Assembly (NCBI GenBank): GCA_964607485.1
Contig: CAZSKP010000021.1
Location: 13,500 to 77,499 of the forward strand
Reading direction: 5' to 3'
DNA length: 64,000 nt
From: an uncultured bacterium
GTDB taxonomy: Bacteria > Abyssobacteria > SURF-5
Shown: piece by piece, positions 563 through 63,997 of the stretch
How positions within the stretch are numbered: the stretch's first letter is position 1
Layout of the letters: every line of letters begins with the position of its first letter
The notes under the pieces: generated by a model
Told to the model about the DNA's origin: nothing
Databases searched by the model: none
The model's input: only the letters and a program-made list of their open reading frames with translations
Made by a program: the position numbers and the translations under genes

Positions 563-1225
563 CTAGATTTCGTTTTCGCCGAGCAGAGTTCCGACCGCGT
601 CCCTCCGTATCGCTATACCCTTCACGCATCTGCACTGCGAACAATCCGCACAACGCTCGACGCCAAGCGACATCGCCTGCGAGCGTCTGTCCTCTTTGTC
701 GCGTGAGTCGAGATGCAGTTGCGCGAGTCTCACGAAAACGTACGGCCCGCCGAAGCCGTCATCGTTCCAATCGAAATGGGGACAACTGGACATGCAGCCG
801 TAACATTCCAGGCACCCAATCAATCGCTTGTAGACTTCCGCGACGGGCATGGCGGCCAGAGGCTGCTCCACGCCGGGCGAGACATAGAGACGCAGCGTCG
901 AGATTCTCCGGTCGATGACCGACCTGTCCACGACAAGGTCTCTGATGGGCGGCAGGTTCTTCAGGGGAGAAATCCGCATTCCCTCCGTCGCCCGGGTGAG
1001 ACAGGCAAGGCGCGGGCTGCCATTTACATCGACCGCACACTCCCCGCACTTCGCCGAGCGGCACCCGTACCTGAACGCCAGCGTCGAATCGTAGTTCTCG
1101 AAGATGTGCAGGAGAGCCTGCAGCACGGTCGCGCCCTCTTCCAGCAGAACGGAGTAACTATGCCCGATGCATTTCGCTTGCTCCGGGTCATAACGCTCGA
1201 CGAACACGTTTCCGTCCTGCATCAC
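563..1225 (-). CDS. succinate dehydrogenase/fumarate reductase family iron-sulfur subunit (SdhB/FrdB-like)
   Basis: FRYGCRSAKCGEC...LAC 2Fe-2S motif, PIRDLVVD, CLECYGCMSSCP and CADCSQCRC; start placed at GTG 1225/ATG 1222 overlapping the upstream TGA, so the 372 aa ORF is over-extended. Confidence 0.85.
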   Translation of the reverse strand: MMQDGNVFVERYDPEQAKCIGHSYSVLLEEGATVLQALLHIFENYDSTLAFRYGCRSAKCGECAVDVNGSPRLACLTRATEGMRISPLKNLPPIRDLVVDRSVIDRRISTLRLYVSPGVEQPLAAMPVAEVYKRLIGCLECYGCMSSCPHFDWNDDGFGGPYVFVRLAQLHLDSRDKEDRRSQAMSLGVERCADCSQCRCVKGIAIRRDAVGTLLGENEI

Positions 1226-3045
1226 GCATCTTCTCCGAGATTCAAACGAGAGTCGAGAATTTTCGCCTGCGTTTTTCGTGGGAGCCGGCTGAGGATGAAG
1301 AATTGGAGTCTCTCGCGATTGGGGTTCGGTCCCCCTTTGGTGCCGAGACCGAATTTCGACAACGCGACAGGTTCGGCCCTGACAGACAGCGCGTCGCCGT
1401 CCATTCGCACTATGACGTTTTGCAGCCATCTCTTGTCGTCGCGTTTGGGATGGTCGAGCCTGACGTGCCCGCCCCGCGATTCCTCGCGCGCCTTCGCGCT
1501 GCGCGCGACGACCTCGGCGACGATGAGCATCTTCTCGAGTTCCAGCGCGTCGCTCCATTCGGGATTGCAGTCTCGCCGGCTCGACACGCTCACGTCGTCG
1601 CGCTGCGTCACTATCTCCGAAATCTCTTCGAGCGCACGGTCGAGCCGCGCTGCATCCCGGATGGGCCCGACGTTTTTCCACATCGCTCTCTGGAGTCTTC
1701 GCACGAGTTCGATCGGCCTGTGCGCGCCCGACCTTCCCAGCAGGCCTTCCGCGTGCGAGCGCGACTGCTCAGCCGTATCGAAATCTGCCGCCGGCTGCTT
1801 GCGGTTCGCCGCCGCCTCGGCCGCGGCCTTGCCCGCGAGGCTTCCGAAGATAAACAGTTCTGCCAGAGACGTGGAGCCGATGCGGTTCGCTCCGTAGAGT
1901 CCGCCCTGCGCCTCGCCGACGGCGAAGAGGTTGTCAACGCCCTGCACTCGGCAATCGGTATCGACTCTCACTCCGCCCAATTGGTAGTGGCCCGTCGGAA
2001 AGACGTCCCAGGGAACCTGCCCGCGAGCGGCCTCCTCGCCGTACGCACGCCTGACGACCTCTGTCATCGACGGAAGCGTCCGCTTGAGGAATTCAAACAT
2101 CTTAGCCCCGATGATTCCCCGAAAATTCGGCGACAGGTCGAGCAGCATGCCCCCGTGTTCGGTGGCGCGGCCGCGTTCTTTTGCGAGCGACATCGCCGCC
2201 GCGACCCTCGCGCGGGTCATCGTCCGAATGCGGGGCAGTACTTCCTTGCCTTTCGCGTCCAGAAGTTTGCCGTAGGGTCCGGCGATGGCGGGCTCGCCGC
2301 AGACGATGCCGATCATCGAGGCGGGGTGGGTGAGTGCGAAGGGGATGAATTGCTGGTGCTCCATGTCGGTGAGCTCGGCGCCGGCCTCGAGCGCGAGCGC
2401 GTAGCCGTCGCCCGTGAGCGCGCGCGAGTTGCTCGTGTGCGGATAGAAAATCCAGCCAAGCCCGCCCGCGGCGAGAATCGTCTGCTTCGCCGCGATGGCC
2501 ACCATCTCGCCTGTGAGCCACCTGAGACAGAGCGCCCCTTCGACGGCTCGCCCGTTTCGGAGCAACTTCACGGCGAGCGTCTCGTCGAGCACATCAACTC
2601 CTGCGCGGGCGGCGGCCGCCCTGAGGGCAGTGCCGATAGGAATCGCCTCGGAGTAACCCGGCTGGGTGCGCGGCAGGCTGTGTCCGCCCAGCGGGGCGGG
2701 CAGGGGAGCCAATTCGCCGGAAGGTTTTCGGGCGAAGATAATGCCGAACCGTTCCATCAGCTCGGTGGCAAGGTGGGCGCGCTCGCAGTATTTCTCGACG
2801 AGCGTTTGATCGTTCAGGAATCCGCCTCCGACGATGATGTCGCGCATGAGGGCATCGGGGGAGTCCTTCGGCGAGATGTTCGGCCGCAGCACCAGTCCGG
2901 CGGCGATGCGGGTGTTGCCGCAGCCGTAGGGTCCCTTTGAGATAATCAGGGCGTTCGCACCCGCCTCGGCGGCCGCGACGGCGGCCACGATTCCGGCCCC
3001 GCCGGCGCCGATGCAGAGGACGTCGCATTCGATACGCCTGACCAT
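1222..3045 (-). CDS. SdhA/FrdA/TfrA-family FAD-binding flavoprotein subunit, substrate uncertain
   Basis: GAGGAG dinucleotide fold, LAAGG, TGDG, PTGHYQLGG, GANRIG, REESRGGH. Confidence 0.9.
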   Translation of the reverse strand: MVRRIECDVLCIGAGGAGIVAAVAAAEAGANALIISKGPYGCGNTRIAAGLVLRPNISPKDSPDALMRDIIVGGGFLNDQTLVEKYCERAHLATELMERFGIIFARKPSGELAPLPAPLGGHSLPRTQPGYSEAIPIGTALRAAAARAGVDVLDETLAVKLLRNGRAVEGALCLRWLTGEMVAIAAKQTILAAGGLGWIFYPHTSNSRALTGDGYALALEAGAELTDMEHQQFIPFALTHPASMIGIVCGEPAIAGPYGKLLDAKGKEVLPRIRTMTRARVAAAMSLAKERGRATEHGGMLLDLSPNFRGIIGAKMFEFLKRTLPSMTEVVRRAYGEEAARGQVPWDVFPTGHYQLGGVRVDTDCRVQGVDNLFAVGEAQGGLYGANRIGSTSLAELFIFGSLAGKAAAEAAANRKQPAADFDTAEQSRSHAEGLLGRSGAHRPIELVRRLQRAMWKNVGPIRDAARLDRALEEISEIVTQRDDVSVSSRRDCNPEWSDALELEKMLIVAEVVARSAKAREESRGGHVRLDHPKRDDKRWLQNVIVRMDGDALSVRAEPVALSKFGLGTKGGPNPNRERLQFFILSRLPRKTQAKILDSRLNLGEDA

Positions 3046-3052
3046 TGACGCG

Positions 3053-3394
3053 CTATTCTATCTCTATTTCCTTGACGGCGAGCTCCATCCCTTCAATCAC
3101 ATCCACGTCTTTCGATTCACATTCGGGACAGAGGAACTCGTAGTTCTGCACCATGAAAACGTGTTCGCAGGCTTTGCATCCCGCCTTGATGGGCACGCGC
3201 TCGACTTCAAGCGCCGCCCCCTCGGCGGGAGTGTCCTTCGTGACGAAGCCGAAGAAGAACGAAAGCTGGTCGGGCACTATGCCTCGAAGCTCGCCCGCGC
3301 GTATGCGGACCGTCCGGATTTTTGTCGCGCCGTTTCGCTGGGCCTCGGCGAGCACGATTCTCAGAATGCTTTGCGCTACCGACATCTCATGCAT
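3053..3394 (-). CDS. hypA: nickel metallochaperone HypA
   Basis: N-terminal MHE Ni site, CKAC and CPEC Zn finger, GMELAVKEIEIE end. Confidence 0.95.
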   Translation of the reverse strand: MHEMSVAQSILRIVLAEAQRNGATKIRTVRIRAGELRGIVPDQLSFFFGFVTKDTPAEGAALEVERVPIKAGCKACEHVFMVQNYEFLCPECESKDVDVIEGMELAVKEIEIE

Positions 3395-56867: not shown

Positions 56868-56903
56868 CCGCGCATCCGTGCGCCTTCCCAGCGAAGATTT
56901 GTC

Positions 56904-56932
56904 TTGCAATTTCCGCCTCTCCGCGTTATAAT
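56904..56932 (+). promoter_or_regulatory. sigma70 promoter for tRNA-Gly
   Basis: TTGCAA-17 bp-TATAAT. Confidence 0.7.
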
Positions 56933-56945
56933 TTCGAAGGAATAG

Positions 56946-57018
56946 GCGGGATTAACTCAGCTGGTAGAGTGTCAGCTTCCCAAGCTGAAAGTCGCGGGTT
57001 CGAATCCCGTATCCCGCT
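56946..57018 (+). tRNA. tRNA-Gly (anticodon CCC)
   Basis: GCGGGAT/ATCCCGC acceptor stem, TCAGC-TT-CCC-AA-GCTGA anticodon arm, GGTTCGAATCC T arm. Confidence 0.96.
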
Positions 57019-57057
57019 CCGATTCCCTCGTCGGCAGGGGAGGAGGAAACATCATTC

Positions 57058-57279
57058 ATGCCCATCTACGAATTCGAATGCGAAAAATGCCACCACGCCT
57101 TTGAGGCCTTGCTGCCCACATCGACTGCCCCGTTCCCACGCTGCGAGAAATGCCGAAGCAAGCGAGTGCGAAAGTGCATCTCGCGCTTCGGATTCTCCAG
57201 CGGCGGCAAGACGGTCACCTCCACGGGCTCCTCAGGGTGCAGCTCCTGCAGCTCCTCAAGCTGCTCTACCTGCCACTGA
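57058..57279 (+). CDS. FmdB-family zinc ribbon protein
   Basis: MPIYEFECEKC..CEKC; Cys/Ser-rich tail CSSCSSSSCSTCH; AGGAGG RBS. Confidence 0.9.
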   Translation: MPIYEFECEKCHHAFEALLPTSTAPFPRCEKCRSKRVRKCISRFGFSSGGKTVTSTGSSGCSSCSSSSCSTCH

Positions 57280-57742
57280 CCTCCACCCGGGCCAAATGCC
57301 ACCATCAAGCCATCTCCACTGTGCTAAATTCTCATATTTCAGCGATATTTGGCCACCGTGCCATCGCTCTGGGCGTTATTGTCATCCGACGCGACTCATA
57401 ACCTCCAATCGAATTTAAGGTTATGGTGACCCAGCTCGCGACCTTCTTCAGGTAAAAATCGCCCTCCGGAGGTCGAACCCAACATCGCTCTGGGCCAAAT
57501 CCAGGGCGTACTGGGCCACTTGTCCGGCTCCTCGGGCTTGCCCAAGTAGACATAACGTATATTATCGGACATGCTCGGTGCCACAAATCCGGCCTCGAAG
57601 GCCTCATCTAAGGCGCCAACGGCAGCGCCTGAGCTGGGCCCTCTATGGGTCTCAACCGTCACGGGAATGACAAAGGGGCGCCTCGGAGGTCCTTCAGACG
57701 TCCGTGAGCGGGCCGATCAGACGGGCAAGGCTTCTTCCTGGC

Positions 57743-58327
57743 TCACGCTTTCTCTTTGTTGCGCTTGAACAAGATGGGTTCGGGAAGCCGCAGATGCAAT
57801 CCAGTGACCTCCCCGTATCTCTGGCGAAGGTCTTCGTGCCGAAGCCGAAGGAAGCGTGTCCACCGCCGGCTGTGGCGACTGTTGAGATAGCGTTTCGACA
57901 GAGACTCGGCGATCCTGTCGTACTCCTTCTCCGACCGGGAGTGCTGGTAGTACTTGCCCGGGAATCGCCGAATGTCGCCGTTGAAGGCGGGATTGATGTG
58001 ATAGAGCTCGTGGAAGATGATCATCATCTTCTCATCGAAGCTCAAATTCTGGAATCTTGGCAGGCAGAAGTATATTGCATAGAGAATCTCGCGGCCGTCG
58101 TGCATGGTTTTCGGCATTTTGCAATACCAGTCGCCTGCGGCCTGTATCACTCGGCGGCCGCCCTGGAACTTCAGCGGCACGAGCTTCGCCTGAAGTCCGT
58201 GTTTCTTGTTGTTCCGGGAGCGCGAGACTCCCACCAGGATCTTGCGACTGTCTATATGATTGAAGGCCTGGCACCGCCGTGAGATATCGGCAATTAGTCT
58301 CTTCATATGATAGGAATAATCGAACAT
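57743..58327 (-). CDS. putative HExxH metallopeptidase
   Basis: LPRFQNL..IFHELYHI..GDIRRF; start placed at MFDYS because a promoter lies inside the longer ORF. Confidence 0.8.
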   Translation of the reverse strand: MFDYSYHMKRLIADISRRCQAFNHIDSRKILVGVSRSRNNKKHGLQAKLVPLKFQGGRRVIQAAGDWYCKMPKTMHDGREILYAIYFCLPRFQNLSFDEKMMIIFHELYHINPAFNGDIRRFPGKYYQHSRSEKEYDRIAESLSKRYLNSRHSRRWTRFLRLRHEDLRQRYGEVTGLHLRLPEPILFKRNKEKA

Positions 58328-58471
58328 CGCTGTACCCTTTGAACAATTTAACTGCTCATCGGTGAGGTTGTCGCCAACCTTGCTTATGCTAACGACAGAG
58401 GACCCTTCACGCAAGAAGGACGACCGGGCGCCGCGACGGGCATAAACAGGCATTGCCCCGGTCTGGAAGTA

Positions 58472-58500
58472 AATATACACAAACGGCATATCCGTGTCAA
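58472..58500 (-). promoter_or_regulatory. sigma70 promoter for the metallopeptidase gene
   Basis: minus strand TTGACA-17 bp-TATATT. Confidence 0.65.
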
Positions 58501-58658: not shown

Positions 58659-59456
58659 TTAATCGGCCAACTTACGTCTGAGTCGTTGGAACTCCCTCAT
58701 TATGTCCGGCAGCTCGCTGAGAATCGCCTGCAAGGATTCCTCGAATTCGACAGGCTTCGCCGGAGTTCCCATCACGTGCTGGCCGTCGCTCAGCTTCTTA
58801 ACTATCGCGGAAGATGGGTGTATGGTGACATGCTTCCCGATTTCTATATGGTTGATGATGCCCGCGCGCTCTCCTATGTAGGATTCGGCGCCGATGGTCG
58901 TGCTTCCGGCAATGCCCACCTGCGGCCGCACCACGGTATCTTCTCCTACGTCCACGTTATGGCCGATCTGCACGAGGTTCTCGATTCGCGCGCCGCACCG
59001 TATGCGCGTTGCGCCGACTGTTGCCCTGTCGATGGTCACATTGGAACCGATCCAGACGTCGTCTTCGATGTCAACAATGCCCACTTGAGGAATCTTGTGG
59101 TTCACTCCCGAGCCGTTCGTGAATCCGAATCCATCGCTTCCGATGACCGAGCCGCTGTTGATGGTGACGTTTCGGCCGATTCGAATCCGTTCGCGAATCG
59201 CCACGTGAGGATGAATAAACGTGCCGGCCCCGATCCGGACCATGGGGCCGATGGAGACGTGGGGACAGATCTCGACTTCCTCCTCGATTTCGGCTCCATC
59301 ATCTATCACCACAAAGGCATGAATTCTTGCGCCCTTCCCAATGCTCACATTTCGTCCGATCACTGCAGTATGGTGCACAAAACCATTTCGACTTCCGGGC
59401 TCGAATTCGTGGTGAGCAACATCTTCTGCGCGTGCCGCTACCGGGGCTCTCAACAT
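58659..59456 (-). CDS. LpxD-like left-handed beta-helix N-acyltransferase, N-terminally short
   Basis: hexapeptide repeats, [36 protein letters not shown]. Confidence 0.85.
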
Positions 59457-59761
59457 GGTGTTTCTCCTATCCGCAAGAAATTGCGCTCTCGCTCACTCAG
59501 TATACTCCTCTTGGCGAAAGAGCAATAATTATACCAGATTCGTTCGCTGGGTCCCCATCGCCCGGCTCAGTAGTGTTAAGTAATTGTCAGAGAAGAGGTT
59601 GTAAAACATACGGCACGGTGGCTAGAGACTTGGGGATAGACGGAAAAATACAGAATTGAACAATTTGGCCCGTTGAATTGCAGAAAAAAAGCGATTTTTT
59701 CGAAGCAACTTCAACAATGTCAATATGTTAGAAAAACGGGCCAAAAGGGCCGAAATCTATT

Positions 59762-61174
59762 TCAGTCATTCTCCGGCTCTTCTCGATAATCGCCGAGGCC
59801 ATATTTCTCGACTTTGTACCGCATGATTTTACGCGTAACTCCAAGCAATTCAGCAGCTTTCGTCTTGTTTCCACTCGTCTTTTCAAGCGCCTCTTTTATC
59901 AATCGCTTCTCGATTTCTTCGACTGTCTCTATCAGCGGAAGCCCATCATCGGGCAATTTTAGCCCATCAAGAAGGCTCAGCCTCGGCTCGGATTGTACGC
60001 GCAGCCGCGTTACTTGAGACGGGAAGCTCTCGATTCCCAGAACATCCGATTTGCCCAGGACCATCGCCCGCTCTATCAGGTTTTCGAGCTCGCGCACGTT
60101 TCCCGGCCAATCATATTCCGTCAGCCGCTTCAGAGCTTCATCAGAAGTAGCCTTTATGTTCTTGCCGAGCTCTCGATTCAGTTTTGAGATGCAGTGATCG
60201 ACCAGCAGCGGGATGTCTTCCCTGCGTTCCCTCAGCGGCGGCAGGTGAATCTCAACCACATTCAAACGGTAGTAGAGGTCCTCGCGAAACGCCTTCTCCT
60301 CGAGGAGGCGCTCGAAGTTCTTGTTCGTCGCGCCAATGATGCGGACATCGACCTTTATCGTGTGCGTGCCGCCGACGCGCTCGAACTCCTTCTCCTGAAG
60401 CACCCTCAGCAGTTTGCCCTGTAGCGGAATCGACATGAGCGCCAGTTCGTCGAGAAAGAGAGTGCCCTCGTCGGCCAGCTCGAACCGGCCCTGCCTGTCG
60501 CTATGCGCGCCGGTGAACGCGCCCTTGACATGGCCGAACAATTCGCTTTCGAGAAGATGTTCGGACAGAGCCGCGCAGTTGACGACGACGAAAGGCTTCA
60601 GCCGGCGCGGGCTCTTCGAATGGATCGCGCGGGCGACGAGCTCCTTGCCCGTGCCGCTTTCTCCCGTCACCAACACGGTCGTGTTCGTAGGGGCGACCTG
60701 GTCGATGAGGCGGAACACTTTCTCTATTTTCTCCGACCGGCCGACGAAGTTGCTGATATCGAATCGAGAATCAAGCTCGGCTCGGAGCTGAATGTTTTCT
60801 TTTATCAAAGAACGCTTCTCGATGGCGCGGGAAGCCAGTATGCGGAGTTCCTCCATATCGAGCGGTTTCGTCACATAGTTCTCCGCCCCCAGCGTCATCG
60901 CCTCCACGGCGGTCTTCACCTCTGCGTACGCGGTCATGATGATGACGGGCAATTCCGGCGACACGGTTTTGACATGGCGCAGCAGCTCGATCCCGTTCAT
61001 GCGCGGCATCCGCATATCACATATCACGAGGTCCGGATGCGAGGCGCTCACCTTCTCCATGGCTTCTTCGCCGTTTTCTGCCAGCGTCACCGAGTAGCTG
61101 TCTCCCTCGAAAAACAGCTGAAGCAGCCGCCTCATTTTCGCTTCATCGTCCACCACAAGTATTCTTGCGGGCAT
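59762..61174 (-). CDS. sigma54-dependent response regulator (NtrC/AtoC type)
   Basis: REC (VVDDE, ICDMRMP), GESGTGKE, ESELFGH, GAFTGA, WPGNVREL, Fis HTH. Confidence 0.96.
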   Translation of the reverse strand: MPARILVVDDEAKMRRLLQLFFEGDSYSVTLAENGEEAMEKVSASHPDLVICDMRMPRMNGIELLRHVKTVSPELPVIIMTAYAEVKTAVEAMTLGAENYVTKPLDMEELRILASRAIEKRSLIKENIQLRAELDSRFDISNFVGRSEKIEKVFRLIDQVAPTNTTVLVTGESGTGKELVARAIHSKSPRRLKPFVVVNCAALSEHLLESELFGHVKGAFTGAHSDRQGRFELADEGTLFLDELALMSIPLQGKLLRVLQEKEFERVGGTHTIKVDVRIIGATNKNFERLLEEKAFREDLYYRLNVVEIHLPPLRERREDIPLLVDHCISKLNRELGKNIKATSDEALKRLTEYDWPGNVRELENLIERAMVLGKSDVLGIESFPSQVTRLRVQSEPRLSLLDGLKLPDDGLPLIETVEEIEKRLIKEALEKTSGNKTKAAELLGVTRKIMRYKVEKYGLGDYREEPEND

Positions 61175-61179
61175 CTCCC

Positions 61180-63387
61180 CTACCCCTTCGTTCCATCCGA
61201 ATTTGTTGTCGGCAAAGAAATTATGAAGGTCGTTCCCGTGCCCTCCCTGCTGGTTACCCTGATTCGCCCGCCGTGGTTTTCAATTATCTTGTGAACCAAC
61301 GACAGCCCCAGCCCCACTCCGTCGTCTTTCGTGGAGAAGAACGGGTCGAAGATTCTCGACAGCACGTCGGGGTGTATGCCTTGTCCCGTGTCCGAGATGA
61401 CCACATCTACCATCGCCGGCGCAGTCTCCGAGGAATTCGACAGCAAGCCCGGGGAGAAATTGCCGGCGGCGGCATCCTCCCTGTCGGCGGAGACCCGCGC
61501 GGATAGCCTGGTCTGCACCCTCAGGGTACCGACCCCGTTCATCGCCTGGAAGGCATTCATGCATAAATTCAGGAACACCTGGTGACATTGCTCGGGATCT
61601 GCAAGCACCCTGGGGAGGTCGGGCGCAAGCTCTCTCTCAATCGAGATTCTTGCCGAATGCGCCTCGTTTTCGAGAAAAGTCATGGTATGCTCGACCAATC
61701 CGTTGATATCCACGAGTTCGAGGTTCGGCTCCGACGGCCTCGCAAACTGGAGAAAATTCGTGACAACCTTGTTGAGCCGGTCCACTTCCTCGACGATGTA
61801 ATTCGTCAGTTCCCGCCTCTTTGATTCATCCTGGATTCGGTCGCGAAGCATTTCGGCGGAATTCTTGATGATGCCCAGAGGGTTCCGAATTTCGTGCGCC
61901 ACGCCGGCGGAAAGCTCGCCCAGCGCCGCCAGCCTGTTGCGTCGCTGCATTTCGTGTTCCAGCTCCCTCAGTTGGTACAGCTTCTTCGTCATGATGTTGA
62001 AGGCTCGACCGAGGTCTCCTATCTCGTCCTTCGTGTCCGCCTCGAAGTGCTGGTCCAAATCGCCGTCGGCGACCGCGAGCACCTTTCTGTACAGACTCCG
62101 TATGGGCCGCGAGATGCCTCGAGATATCGTGTAGCCGATGACGACCGCCAGCAAGAATCCCAGCGTGAGTATGACGGGAAAGAAGTACCACGTGGTAACG
62201 GTGGCCTCAAACGTGTATTTTCGGGGGATGCCAACGAATACCAGTCCGAGCACCTTGCCCCCGTAACCGACCAGCGGCTGGTAAATGGCGCGGTACGGCT
62301 CGCCCTTGAGGAGAGCGTCGCGCTCGTAGTAGCGTTGTTTATCGACGAATATGCTTTGCTTCATCATCGACGTCATCGGCAGGTCTTTGATGGCGCCCAC
62401 CAGCGGGTCTTCGTGCGACTTGAATTCGAGCTCGACCCTCCGGTTCAGCGCCCTGCCTTCCTCACTCGTTTCAGGCGCAATCGCACGCGTCTCGCCGAAG
62501 CTTATCGTCTGTATCCGCGACGAATCTATTCCCTCTTCCACCAGCGCCGCCTTCACGGCCTCGGCGCGTTTGCGTCCGACCCAATAGTTGCTTCTCTCCG
62601 AGCCCGTGGAATCGGTATGACCCTCGATTATCAATGTCAGCTCGGGATGCTCGCGCATAATCGAGGCGATTTCCCTTATCTTTCCCGCCGCCGCTTCCGG
62701 AATCTCGTAACTGCTCCCCTTGAAGAAGATGCTCGACGGCCCGGCCGGAATCCTCTCATGGAATACGCGGATGTCGGCGCCCGTCATGATTTCGAGGTCT
62801 TGGGCGAAGCTCTTGCCCAGCACGTACGCTATCGCCAGCGTGCCGTACTGGCGGTCCCCTTCGGTTATCGGGACGATGGCTCCTGCAAGCAGGGTCTGAA
62901 TCTTGTTTATTTCCGCCTCCATCACCGTCTTGGTGATAGTCGGGGGAACCTGAGGCGGCGGCGAGGGCGGACCGCTGCCGGGAACCGGCTGACCGCTGGG
63001 CACCCAGAGTCCGATAGGCGCCTCGCTTCCCGATGAAATGGGTGGAGTGAAAAGATAGGGTACCTTTTCCTTCTTGAGGGTCTCGGCGAAACCGGGCTTC
63101 TCAATCACGGCGCTCAAGCTCTGCACCGCCCGGTCCTCATAGCGATCGATTGCGGAGAGCGCAGTCAAGTTTGCCTCTTGGATTCTTCGCTCGATGTCTC
63201 TTTCTGCCAACTCGGAGGTTATCCGGATGACCAGATACGTCGATACGGCAATGGATATCACCGCGGTGAACACGAACGCCAGGATGAGCTTGTTCTGGAT
63301 GCGCGGTTTGAGCAGTTTCCGCTGGGCGGTCAGCAGCAGGTTTTCCGCAACGTCGGCGACGAAGCGGCCTTCGTTACCCTCTTTCAT
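61180..63387 (-). CDS. sensor histidine kinase with periplasmic OmpA-like domain
   Basis: TM1, Cache-like region interrupted by OmpA_C (IEGHTDSTG..RAEAV..FGE..NRRVE), TM2, HAMP, AHEIRNPL, NAFQAM, DTGQGI, FDPFFSTK, GVGLGL; start approximate. Confidence 0.92.
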   Translation of the reverse strand: MKEGNEGRFVADVAENLLLTAQRKLLKPRIQNKLILAFVFTAVISIAVSTYLVIRITSELAERDIERRIQEANLTALSAIDRYEDRAVQSLSAVIEKPGFAETLKKEKVPYLFTPPISSGSEAPIGLWVPSGQPVPGSGPPSPPPQVPPTITKTVMEAEINKIQTLLAGAIVPITEGDRQYGTLAIAYVLGKSFAQDLEIMTGADIRVFHERIPAGPSSIFFKGSSYEIPEAAAGKIREIASIMREHPELTLIIEGHTDSTGSERSNYWVGRKRAEAVKAALVEEGIDSSRIQTISFGETRAIAPETSEEGRALNRRVELEFKSHEDPLVGAIKDLPMTSMMKQSIFVDKQRYYERDALLKGEPYRAIYQPLVGYGGKVLGLVFVGIPRKYTFEATVTTWYFFPVILTLGFLLAVVIGYTISRGISRPIRSLYRKVLAVADGDLDQHFEADTKDEIGDLGRAFNIMTKKLYQLRELEHEMQRRNRLAALGELSAGVAHEIRNPLGIIKNSAEMLRDRIQDESKRRELTNYIVEEVDRLNKVVTNFLQFARPSEPNLELVDINGLVEHTMTFLENEAHSARISIERELAPDLPRVLADPEQCHQVFLNLCMNAFQAMNGVGTLRVQTRLSARVSADREDAAAGNFSPGLLSNSSETAPAMVDVVISDTGQGIHPDVLSRIFDPFFSTKDDGVGLGLSLVHKIIENHGGRIRVTSREGTGTTFIISLPTTNSDGTKG

Positions 63388-63997
63388 GTGCCAGCTCAAC
63401 TCCCAGTCGAAAGCATTCGACGTCCTCGGGCCGACCATCTTCTTCGAGGGCCGCGAGCAGATGTGTCTCGGAAACCGGCAGGCGCGTCAGGCCGGATGCG
63501 ATACCCAGCGAAATGGCGTTCATCGCGCGCGAATGGCCGAACCTCTCGCGCGCCATTTCCGTCAGGTTCCACACATGGATCTTCTTCGTAATCCGTTCGA
63601 GCATTTCCACGATGGCCTGTGTCGGAGGGTATTCGGCTTCGCCGAGCTTCACCGGTATCGGCGGAAGCGGAAACGAGTTCAGAATCACCGTCGAAGCCTC
63701 GTTCAGGTATCGCGCCAGCCGCGCCGCTTCGAGCGGTTCCAGGCCTATCAGCAGGTCGGCGCCTCCCGCACAGAGCATCGGAGAGCAGACCTCGTGCCGT
63801 TCGTCCGGTTCACGGCCATTGTCCTGCCATTGGTATCGTATGATGGACGACACGTGTCCCTCGCGCTGGGCTCCGCCCCTCCGCTCGGAGCCGCTCACGT
63901 GAATGCCGGCCCTGAGCGCCGCCTTCTTCAGGAGCGTCCCAAGCGTGATTACCCCCTGCCCCCCTATGCCGGCGATGAGCGCATTATAGACGGGCAT
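63374..63997 (-). CDS. iorB: indolepyruvate:ferredoxin oxidoreductase beta subunit-like (2-oxoacid oxidoreductase gamma family)
   Basis: IAGIGGQGVI, GGAQREGHV, ADLLIGLEPLEAAR, NAISLG; TAATG overlap with an upstream gene beyond the window edge. Confidence 0.82.
   Translation of the reverse strand: MPVYNALIAGIGGQGVITLGTLLKKAALRAGIHVSGSERRGGAQREGHVSSIIRYQWQDNGREPDERHEVCSPMLCAGGADLLIGLEPLEAARLARYLNEASTVILNSFPLPPIPVKLGEAEYPPTQAIVEMLERITKKIHVWNLTEMARERFGHSRAMNAISLGIASGLTRLPVSETHLLAALEEDGRPEDVECFRLGVELAHERG

Follow-up and report, generated by a model that had tools for sequence, protein, structure and literature searches.

An OmpA-like domain nested in the Cache/PDC sensor of a histidine kinase from Abyssubacteria: a candidate cell-wall-sensing two-component system

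Results

A kinase-regulator module at the end of the window

We analyzed a stretch of 64,000 nucleotides, referred to here as the window, from an uncultured bacterium (GTDB lineage Bacteria; Abyssobacteria; SURF-5; GenBank assembly GCA_964607485.1, contig CAZSKP010000021.1, positions 13,500 to 77,499). A two-component module is encoded on the minus strand in its last ~4 kb. The module comprises a gene for a sensor histidine kinase, whose periplasmic sensor is interrupted by an OmpA-like domain, and a gene for an NtrC/AtoC-type response regulator. All coordinates are those of the window, and the features are collected in Table 1.

The kinase has the elements of a class I (HisKA) transmembrane histidine kinase. 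Its open reading frame (ORF) extends from 61180 to 63438 on the minus strand. We take the Met codon at 63387 as the start, giving a protein of 735 amino acids, because homologues (731-737 amino acids) align from that Met; the first-pass annotation of this DNA, made from the sequence alone, had placed the start there too. Pfam domain positions are numbered below from the beginning of the ORF at 63438, and transmembrane positions in Table 1 are numbered from Met 63387. A hydropathy scan found two transmembrane segments (TM1 and TM2) that enclose a periplasmic region of ~344 residues. The protein also has a HAMP domain (amino acids 438-487), a HisKA domain with the H-box histidine (amino acids 506-569), and an HATPase_c domain with N, G1, F, and G2 boxes (amino acids 614-745). 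The H-box AHEIRNPL and the motifs DTG.GI and G.GLGL were invariant in 20 of 20 aligned proteins. These matches and the invariant H-box bear out the earlier statement that the HAMP, H-box, and ATPase domains are intact.

The regulator is an NtrC-family sigma-54 activator. The kinase stop codon and the ATG of the regulator gene are separated by 5 bp (61175-61179), an arrangement that the first-pass annotation had already described and that the ORF coordinates and Pfam matches confirm. The protein matched Response_reg (117.7 bits), Sigma54_activat (242 bits), and HTH_8 (54.1 bits), AAA_lid_14 was also found, and the GAFTGA motif was read from the translation. For both proteins the nearest NCBIfam models were those of AtoS/AtoC, ZraS/ZraR, and NtrB/NtrC, all at scores under the equivalog cut-offs: the kinase scored 264.8 bits with AtoS (cut-off 646) and 245.4 bits with ZraS (cut-off 479), and the regulator 514.9 bits with AtoC (cut-off 714) and 470.8 bits with NtrC (cut-off 558.6).

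A complete OmpA-like domain within a Cache/PDC sensor

The periplasmic region of the kinase contains a full-length OmpA-like domain of the Pal/MotB type. The match to the Pfam OmpA family (PF00691) covers amino acids 238-333 (62440-62727 in the window) and all of the profile (positions 1-98 of 98), with a score of 70.7 bits (cut-off 27.2; E 1.4e-19). When the insert was compared by sequence with solved structures, it matched the C-terminal domain of OprF (5u1h, 69.7 bits). PADLOC models of ZorB matched it with up to 39.8 bits; the PADLOC matches were generic domain matches only (ZorB-type OmpA and RtcR/PspF-type AAA+), and no defense system was found.

We modeled the periplasmic region with AlphaFold from 47 aligned rows (predicted local distance difference test, pLDDT, 79.4; predicted template modeling score, pTM, 0.62). 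Residues 155-270 of the model resemble the C-terminal domains of Pal and OmpA proteins, including Pal (4g4v, Z 18.2, 111 of 111 residues, root mean square deviation 2.3), OprF (5u1h, Z 17.4), and YfiB (4zhv, Z 12.9). The structure of Acinetobacter baumannii OmpA with bound stem peptide (3td5) also matched the insert, with a Foldseek E value of 2.1e-10. The pLDDT was 76-94 over most of the domain.

In the model, the domain that hosts the insert is a Cache/PDC sensor. Single-Cache/PDC sensors align across model residues 1-343, with 8py0_B at Z 11.7 (143 of 157 residues) and CitA 8bgb at Z 9.7, followed by CitA 2j80 (Z 8.8) and WalK 4ywz (Z 8.1); double-Cache sensors align more loosely, over ~190-209 residues with Z ~8. 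The predicted elements are those of the PDC fold: a long N-terminal helix, a five-stranded sheet, and helices between beta2 and beta3. Pfam sCache_3_3 (PF17202) matched the kinase slightly below its cut-off (26.4 bits, cut-off 28.8) and on the C-terminal side only (amino acids 365-408, profile positions 57-99 of 107). The same family exceeded the cut-off in two relatives with the OmpA-like insert, P0122 (38.3 bits) and P0039 (32.0 bits), and precomputed annotation assigns it to 31 of the 38 members of the OmpA-kinase family described below. Among relatives without the insert, dCache_3 (PF14827) exceeded the cut-off in P0215 (30.7 bits) and P0140 (26.6 bits).

The model resolves the OmpA-like part and the Cache host as separate folds, one nested in the other. 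Strand E149-154 precedes the insert and helix H284-292 follows it; the site is the beta2-beta3 connection of the membrane-proximal PDC module, the last strand of which would end ~12 residues short of TM2. In solved PDC sensors, the beta2-beta3 connection lines the ligand pocket. The connectors of the insert are ~8 and ~10-16 residues long, and the longer one derives in part from the parent sensor. The first-pass annotation had described a complete OmpA_C/Pal/MotB-type domain within a Cache-like sensor, and the full-length Pfam match, the structure model, and the uninserted relatives all agree with it; the Cache-like strands that it had quoted on the two sides of the break are the elements that flank the insert. 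It had also described a Pro-rich linker before the OmpA domain. This was a misreading, and we rejected the stretch as a linker: it sits ~65 residues ahead of the OmpA domain, is partly present in relatives without OmpA, and is a loop of the parent sensor.

Residues that contact peptidoglycan in OmpA-like domains are invariant in the insert. The Asp of the GHTD motif, the Arg 15 residues farther on, an Asn, and the NRRVE motif were each kept in 36 of 36 OmpA-bearing rows, as the first-pass annotation had anticipated for the Asp and the Arg. In A. baumannii OmpA, Asp271 and Arg286 are reported to bind diaminopimelate, and they have the same spacing of 15 residues (PMC12108004). Because the insert retains the Asp and Arg with which the diaminopimelate of the stem peptide is held, it most likely binds peptidoglycan material. 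The insert has been conserved along with its surroundings; mean pairwise identity was 0.64 in the insert and 0.60 and 0.68 in the flanking parts of the sensor.

A single insertion into a family of kinases that lack the OmpA-like domain

Kinases with the same sensor and no insert exist in metagenomic data. We searched exhaustively with phmmer, using residues 165-510 (numbered from 63438), against 1.84 billion cluster representatives and took the best 150. These included three clusters of the OmpA-kinase family (P0014, P0039, and P0122) and 12 kinases of 371-578 amino acids that lack OmpA and in which the two sensor halves abut. The shortest, P0134 (371 amino acids), is a truncated record, and the other eleven have 535-578 amino acids. 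A segment search of the other 135 of the best 150 found none that joins OmpA to HAMP or kinase segments; weaker fusions would rank below these.

The uninserted proteins share the sensor halves, TM2, HAMP domain, and kinase core of the window kinase and have a ~13-residue loop where the window kinase has the 105-residue OmpA-like domain. They are 33-41% identical to the kinase and colinear with it, including the N-terminal sensor part, save for one gap that covers the OmpA domain, beginning just past the strand TG..VRIF and ending ahead of DLPMT. In a model of P0134, the elements follow one another as in the window kinase, and a 13-residue loop of low confidence (residues 165-177) is predicted at the insert site. 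The best structure matches of this model were CitA 8bgb (Z 10.4), 8py0_B (Z 10.3), and the double-Cache sensor 3lid (Z 9.0).

We built a tree from 569 alignment columns with the insert excluded. The 28 rows were the window kinase, 14 of its 38 OmpA-bearing homologues, 11 uninserted kinases, and two distant kinases that make a poor outgroup. The OmpA state required a single change on this tree. Of the 15 OmpA-bearing rows, 14 fell into one clade (support of 97 in the Shimodaira-Hasegawa-like approximate likelihood ratio test, SH-aLRT), and the placement of P0122 had a support of 57. Judging from the alignment and the tree, one insertion event brought the OmpA-like domain into a family of Cache/PDC-HAMP-HisKA kinases, in the loop between a short strand and the next helix.

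A scan of the species genomes with the whole-family alignment gave 80 loci, none of which matched the parent sensor, the H-box pattern having drawn generic kinases. In the genome of the window, the query used there detected no paralogue with an uninserted sensor. A scan of metagenomes with P0126 gave four loci, all partial matches to the kinase core and none of them P0126.

Kinases of the main OmpA-bearing clade have a second extra segment, between the N-box and the G1-box of the ATPase domain (~61370-61490; kinase amino acids ~633-673 counted from Met 63387). It consists of ~30-40 low-complexity residues, among them a conserved FSP. P0038, P0039, and the uninserted relatives have a much shorter version of it or none.

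Distribution of the kinase and support for the insert junctions

The architecture is found in many assemblies and in nearly all species genomes of the phylum. We queried 5.8 billion proteins with the periplasmic region in a word-indexed search, which listed 120 matches, of which 38 have OmpA, HAMP, and HisKA (36 at 62-77% identity and two at 39-41%); the remaining 82 are ordinary OmpA-domain proteins. The 38 proteins stem from NCBI, JGI, ENA, and Logan assemblies, and the source labels on the close relatives are Candidatus Abyssubacteria, with a few Hydrogenedentota, Lindowbacteria, or Poribacteria. One full-length copy without internal stops was present in each of 10 of the 11 species genomes of the phylum in the collection that we searched. 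The sole genome without the kinase is 77% complete.

The draft assembly from which the window was taken has 93 contigs. We checked the junctions of the insert on assembled contigs. Contigs from three other sequencing runs, in two studies, span the N-side junction; across the C-side junction, we found a contig only in the run from which the assembly may stem. No RNA data set was listed among the runs that hold the sequence. The first-pass annotation had raised the possibility of an assembly chimera; the 38 proteins from several assemblies, the 10 of 11 species genomes, and the contigs across the N-side junction exclude it. The window ends at the end of the contig (64000), 613 bp past the kinase start, and the upstream context was read from related genomes.

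We found no kinase with an OmpA-like insert in its sensor in the literature, in line with the earlier remark that none had been characterized; this covers full-text searches and no domain-architecture database, so fusions of independent origin may exist elsewhere. A term search of the genomic description of Abyssubacteria found no mention of kinases or OmpA. In the ESM Atlas (clusters of at least 50 members, with at most three families shown for each), we found only Cache and generic kinase clusters and none with OmpA and a kinase, a negative that, given these limits, says little.

A conserved sigma-54 promoter motif and the genes downstream

We newly found a sigma-54 promoter motif downstream of the regulator gene, ahead of genes for a truncated LpxD paralogue and an HExxH protein. 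The motif emerged when the intergenic region between the regulator and the next gene was aligned across seven loci of the same family. The consensus of sigma-54 promoters is TGGYAY-N5-TTGCW. It has a single match in the 64-kb window (TGGTATAATTATTGCT), where 0.09 were expected, and one match at the same position in each of the seven same-family loci. Genome-wide there were 48 matches versus 16 for the reversed control, and the genome encodes RpoN (rpoN). With -24 and -12 elements, a position upstream of a gene, conservation, and rpoN in the genome, the motif is a well-qualified predicted sigma-54 promoter. The earlier suggestion that the kinase reports to sigma-54 genes fits both the activator encoded next to it and the conserved promoter motif that adjoins the module. 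A search with the stricter consensus TGGCAC-N5-TTGCW, allowing one mismatch, gave one unrelated match, which is the level expected by chance, and was set aside.

Two other intergenic elements are conserved. A short GC hairpin with a T-run right after the regulator stop codon is a possible terminator. The element CGGnCnAAAnnGnnC, found in all seven aligned loci ~136 nucleotides ahead of the -24 box, is a candidate binding site for the regulator, and we hold this assignment with low confidence. There was no clear dyad at CGGnCnAAAnnGnnC, and we found no convincing inverted repeats upstream of the promoter.

The gene after the promoter motif encodes an acyltransferase of the left-handed beta-helix type without the LpxD N-terminal domain. 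It matched TIGR01853 with 226-228 bits (cut-off 242.5), over profile positions 82-320 only, and a full-length LpxD (253.3 bits, positions 1-322) is encoded elsewhere in the genome. Given the score under the equivalog cut-off and the missing N-terminal domain, we rejected its identification as LpxD and regard it as a truncated paralogue. For the HExxH protein, we found no relative in the PDB by sequence and no match in NCBIfam.

The order of genes in the module is conserved in both families of the phylum. Kinase, regulator, promoter, and LpxD paralogue were in this order in 8 of 8 loci examined, and the HExxH gene came directly after the LpxD paralogue in seven of them, the eighth ending at a contig edge; loci of two further genomes, on short contigs, are outside this count. 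In the distant family, the LpxD-like and HExxH genes again follow the regulator gene, and the kinase, LpxD-like, and HExxH proteins are 41%, 49%, and 44% identical to those of the window. In the loci compared, there was no conserved gene for a periplasmic partner within the module.

In most relatives, genes for a MoxR-type AAA_5 ATPase and then a VWA protein follow the HExxH gene, and both are absent from the window. Where they would be (56868-57742), the window has a gene for tRNA-Gly(CCC) (56946-57020, plus strand) and ~700 bp in which no ORF is conserved, a pattern suggestive of a local deletion or rearrangement.

The gene directly upstream of the kinase gene encodes a protein similar to the beta subunit of indolepyruvate:ferredoxin oxidoreductase (IOR). 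Its end overlaps the kinase start by 14 nucleotides (63374-63387), and a gene for IOR-alpha (573 bits, cut-off 650.9) precedes the beta-like gene in the related loci L022-L027. Because of this overlap and the IOR-alpha gene upstream in related loci, the kinase may be co-transcribed with these amino-acid fermentation genes. The order of IOR and kinase genes is not retained in the distant family. In L028, a locus of that family, genes for another NtrC-type regulator and for an HDOD-domain protein (L028 positions 746-3077) lie ~5 kb beyond the module on its downstream side.

Table 1. Positions in the 64,000-nucleotide window, strand, and evidence for the features of the module and its surroundings, with identifiers of the uninserted relatives.
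Feature	Position or identifier	Strand	Evidence
Sensor histidine kinase gene	61180..63387	-	ORF, Pfam domains, homologue alignment
TM1	63220..63288	-	Hydropathy peak, amino acids 34-56
N-terminal Cache/PDC part: 38-residue stalk helix, small extra strands, beta1-beta2, helix, strand ADIRVF	62758..63219	-	Model H2-39 to E149-154
Pro-rich low-confidence loop in N-terminal sensor part	62935..63066	-	pLDDT <50 at model residues 77-89
Inserted OmpA-like (Pal/MotB-type) domain and two short connectors	62410..62757	-	Pfam, structure matches, residue conservation
Codons of candidate diaminopimelate-contact residues in the insert	Asp 62611-62613, Arg 62566-62568	-	Residue conservation and A. baumannii OmpA equivalents
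C-terminal Cache/PDC part: helix and strands beta3-beta5	62188..62409	-	sCache_3_3 profile; model H284-292, E297-304, E307-318, E323-332
TM2	62122..62190	-	Hydropathy peak, amino acids 400-422
HAMP domain	61978..62127	-	Pfam, 55 bits
HisKA (DHp) domain, H-box HEIRNPL	61732..61923	-	Pfam, 58.1 bits; H-box invariant
HATPase_c domain, with lineage-specific extra segment between N-box and G1-box	61204..61599	-	Pfam, 78.1 bits; alignment columns 646-690
NtrC/AtoC-type response regulator gene (REC, sigma-54 AAA+ with GAFTGA, HTH_8)	59762..61174	-	ORF, Pfam
Short GC hairpin and T-run right after regulator stop, possible terminator	59732..59753	-	Invariant columns G25-C38 of alignment A4
Conserved element CGGnCnAAAnnGnnC, candidate regulator site	59657..59672	-	Invariant columns G105, G106, C108, A111, A112, G115, C118
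Sigma-54 type promoter motif TGGTATAATTATTGCT (-24 GG, -12 GC)	59521..59536	-	Conserved intergenic alignment; 65 nucleotides before next ATG
LpxD paralogue (left-handed beta-helix acyltransferase) without LpxD N-terminal domain	58659..59456	-	Profile match
HExxH metallopeptidase-like protein gene	57743..58489	-	PF18894, 32.8 bits; true start probably downstream of 58489
Indolepyruvate:ferredoxin oxidoreductase beta-like gene, directly upstream of the kinase	63374..63997	-	POR family
Uninserted sister kinases (metagenomic)	P0124, P0126-P0128, P0130, P0132-P0134, P0140, P0143, P0147, P0215		

Discussion

The module, conserved across the phylum and adjacent to genes of outer-membrane lipid synthesis, is a good candidate for a direct sensor of the cell wall. 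We propose, with a probability of roughly 0.5, that as a two-component system it senses the wall or muropeptides and regulates envelope genes. In the scheme that we have in mind, the insert would bind peptidoglycan material in the form of the sacculus, nascent strands, or free muropeptides. Because two short connectors join the insert to the surrounding sensor fold, the PDC module should respond to whether the insert is occupied or how it is positioned, and we infer that this response would be passed allosterically to TM2, HAMP, and kinase output. The phosphorylated NtrC-type regulator would then activate the sigma-54 promoter immediately downstream, and this promoter would drive the truncated LpxD paralogue and the HExxH protein, plus the MoxR ATPase and the VWA protein in most relatives. 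A circuit of this kind would couple the state of the wall to remodeling of the envelope or lipid A. A more specific form of the proposal, which we offer tentatively and put somewhat short of an even chance, is that the kinase is a natural domain-insertion biosensor, in which a stem-peptide receptor set into the pocket side of a Cache domain reads diaminopimelate-containing wall material and adjusts lipid A and envelope genes through sigma-54.

Several points weigh against this proposal. The system is a prediction for an uncultured organism. The pairing of the regulator with the promoter is read from their adjacency and the conserved gene order, in a genome that holds 48 such motifs. In the distant-family locus L028, a GG-N10-GC element lies 75 nucleotides ahead of the LpxD-like ATG; it is one of seven two-mismatch matches where 9.7 were expected, and carries no weight alone. 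The host sensor, which the model identifies as a Cache/PDC domain, could be either a single Cache or a reduced double Cache. Finally, the Cache pocket may remain the main input, because positions that flank the insert on either side show at least 90% conservation whether or not the kinase carries OmpA (e.g., the R in ADIRVF and the Y in YYE and PYRAIYQP).

The last of these points favors a different account of the kinase, which we consider less likely but a serious rival. The Cache pocket would sense the small molecule that was sensed by the parent kinase, and the OmpA-like domain would position or immobilize the kinase or dock a partner protein rather than serve as an input. The conserved flanking residues are putative pocket residues, as this account would have it, and OmpA-like domains are known docking modules, with the YfiB-YfiR and TolB-Pal complexes among the fold matches. 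However, an insert within the pocket-side connection should perturb the sensor, and it is the diaminopimelate-binding residues, beyond the fold, that are invariant over members just 40% identical. The lack of a conserved gene for a periplasmic partner in the module also counts against this account.

It seems less probable still, and quite doubtful, that the OmpA-like domain tethers the kinase to the sacculus and that the kinase responds mechanically to membrane-to-wall distance, turgor, or surface contact. The invariant peptidoglycan-contact residues would suit a tether, and the wall-anchored inner-membrane proteins MotB, PomB, TagL, and ZorB are among the fold matches. In the model, the insert is rigidly mounted in the sensor, so that a pull would be transmitted. 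However, the connectors are just ~8 and ~10-16 residues long and the PDC module would end ~12 residues from TM2, whereas MotB-type anchors reach the wall by means of long linkers and a large rearrangement. Because the connectors are short and the insert is near the membrane, a long reach to the sacculus would seem unlikely; the insert has no long extensible linker of the MotB kind. Nothing that we computed favors a mechanical sensor over simple ligand sensing. MotB/PomB, TagL/TssL, and ZorB share the fold and the binding motif with the insert and likewise carry them on a protein anchored in the inner membrane. In these proteins, the OmpA-like domain is found at the terminus, on a long linker, and serves to anchor a stator or a machine. 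Unlike the window kinase, they are not histidine kinases, and the domain is not nested in a sensor fold.

That the junctions are an artefact of assembly or gene calling, or the insert a decaying remnant without function, is very improbable: the assembly is a draft, the window ends soon after the kinase start, and one junction is bridged by a single run, but the architecture occurs in 38 proteins, nine other species genomes carry the kinase and none of the ten copies has internal stops, the N-side junction is bridged independently, and conservation is as high in the insert as in the remainder of the sensor, so that as far as the sequence data allow this account is refuted.

The window kinase differs from the sensors to which it is most readily compared. 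The AtoS/AtoC and ZraS/ZraR pairs, the best NCBIfam matches of the kinase core and the regulator, differ from it in sensor and in likely targets. CitA/DcuS-type sensors, formate chemoreceptors, and WalK have a host fold like that of the window kinase, without a second domain in the beta2-beta3 connection, and it is in the PDC pocket itself that their small ligands or cleavage products are bound. For WalK, a role in monitoring wall hydrolysis has been reported (PMC7299342). In the YfiBNR system of Pseudomonas aeruginosa, as in our proposal, the input is the state of the envelope and is received by an OmpA-like peptidoglycan-binding domain. In that system, YfiB is reported to be a separate outer-membrane lipoprotein that sequesters YfiR and thereby relieves an inner-membrane diguanylate cyclase (PMC4887326, PMC4655355, PMC2837407). 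The domain of the window kinase is instead fused inside the kinase sensor, and its predicted output is phosphotransfer to a sigma-54 activator.

Another parallel is PghK/PghR of Shewanella oneidensis, which is reported to respond to peptidoglycan damage. PghK, like the window kinase, is a Gram-negative kinase with a module that binds a wall polymer in an unusually large periplasmic domain. The module of PghK is reported to be a CBM9 carbohydrate-binding module thought to read glycan fragments rather than an OmpA-like peptide-stem binder nested in a Cache domain, and the family of the PghR regulator, its targets (blaA and relV), and the lineage are unlike those of the window module. The same source describes peptidoglycan monitoring in Gram-negative bacteria as still poorly understood (bioRxiv 10.1101/2023.05.05.539549).

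The window kinase is a readable candidate for work on this problem. Both the ligand and the contact residues of its input domain are known, the uninserted parent kinase is a natural control, the likely output promoter and genes adjoin the kinase module, and the parts can be tested outside the uncultured host. It is also a clean natural case of nested sensory domains and is relevant to the design of allosteric sensors. If our proposal is correct, this would be the first two-component kinase in a diderm for which an OmpA-like domain has been shown to sense the peptide moiety of the bacterium's own wall, and it would provide a direct link between the wall and outer-membrane homeostasis.

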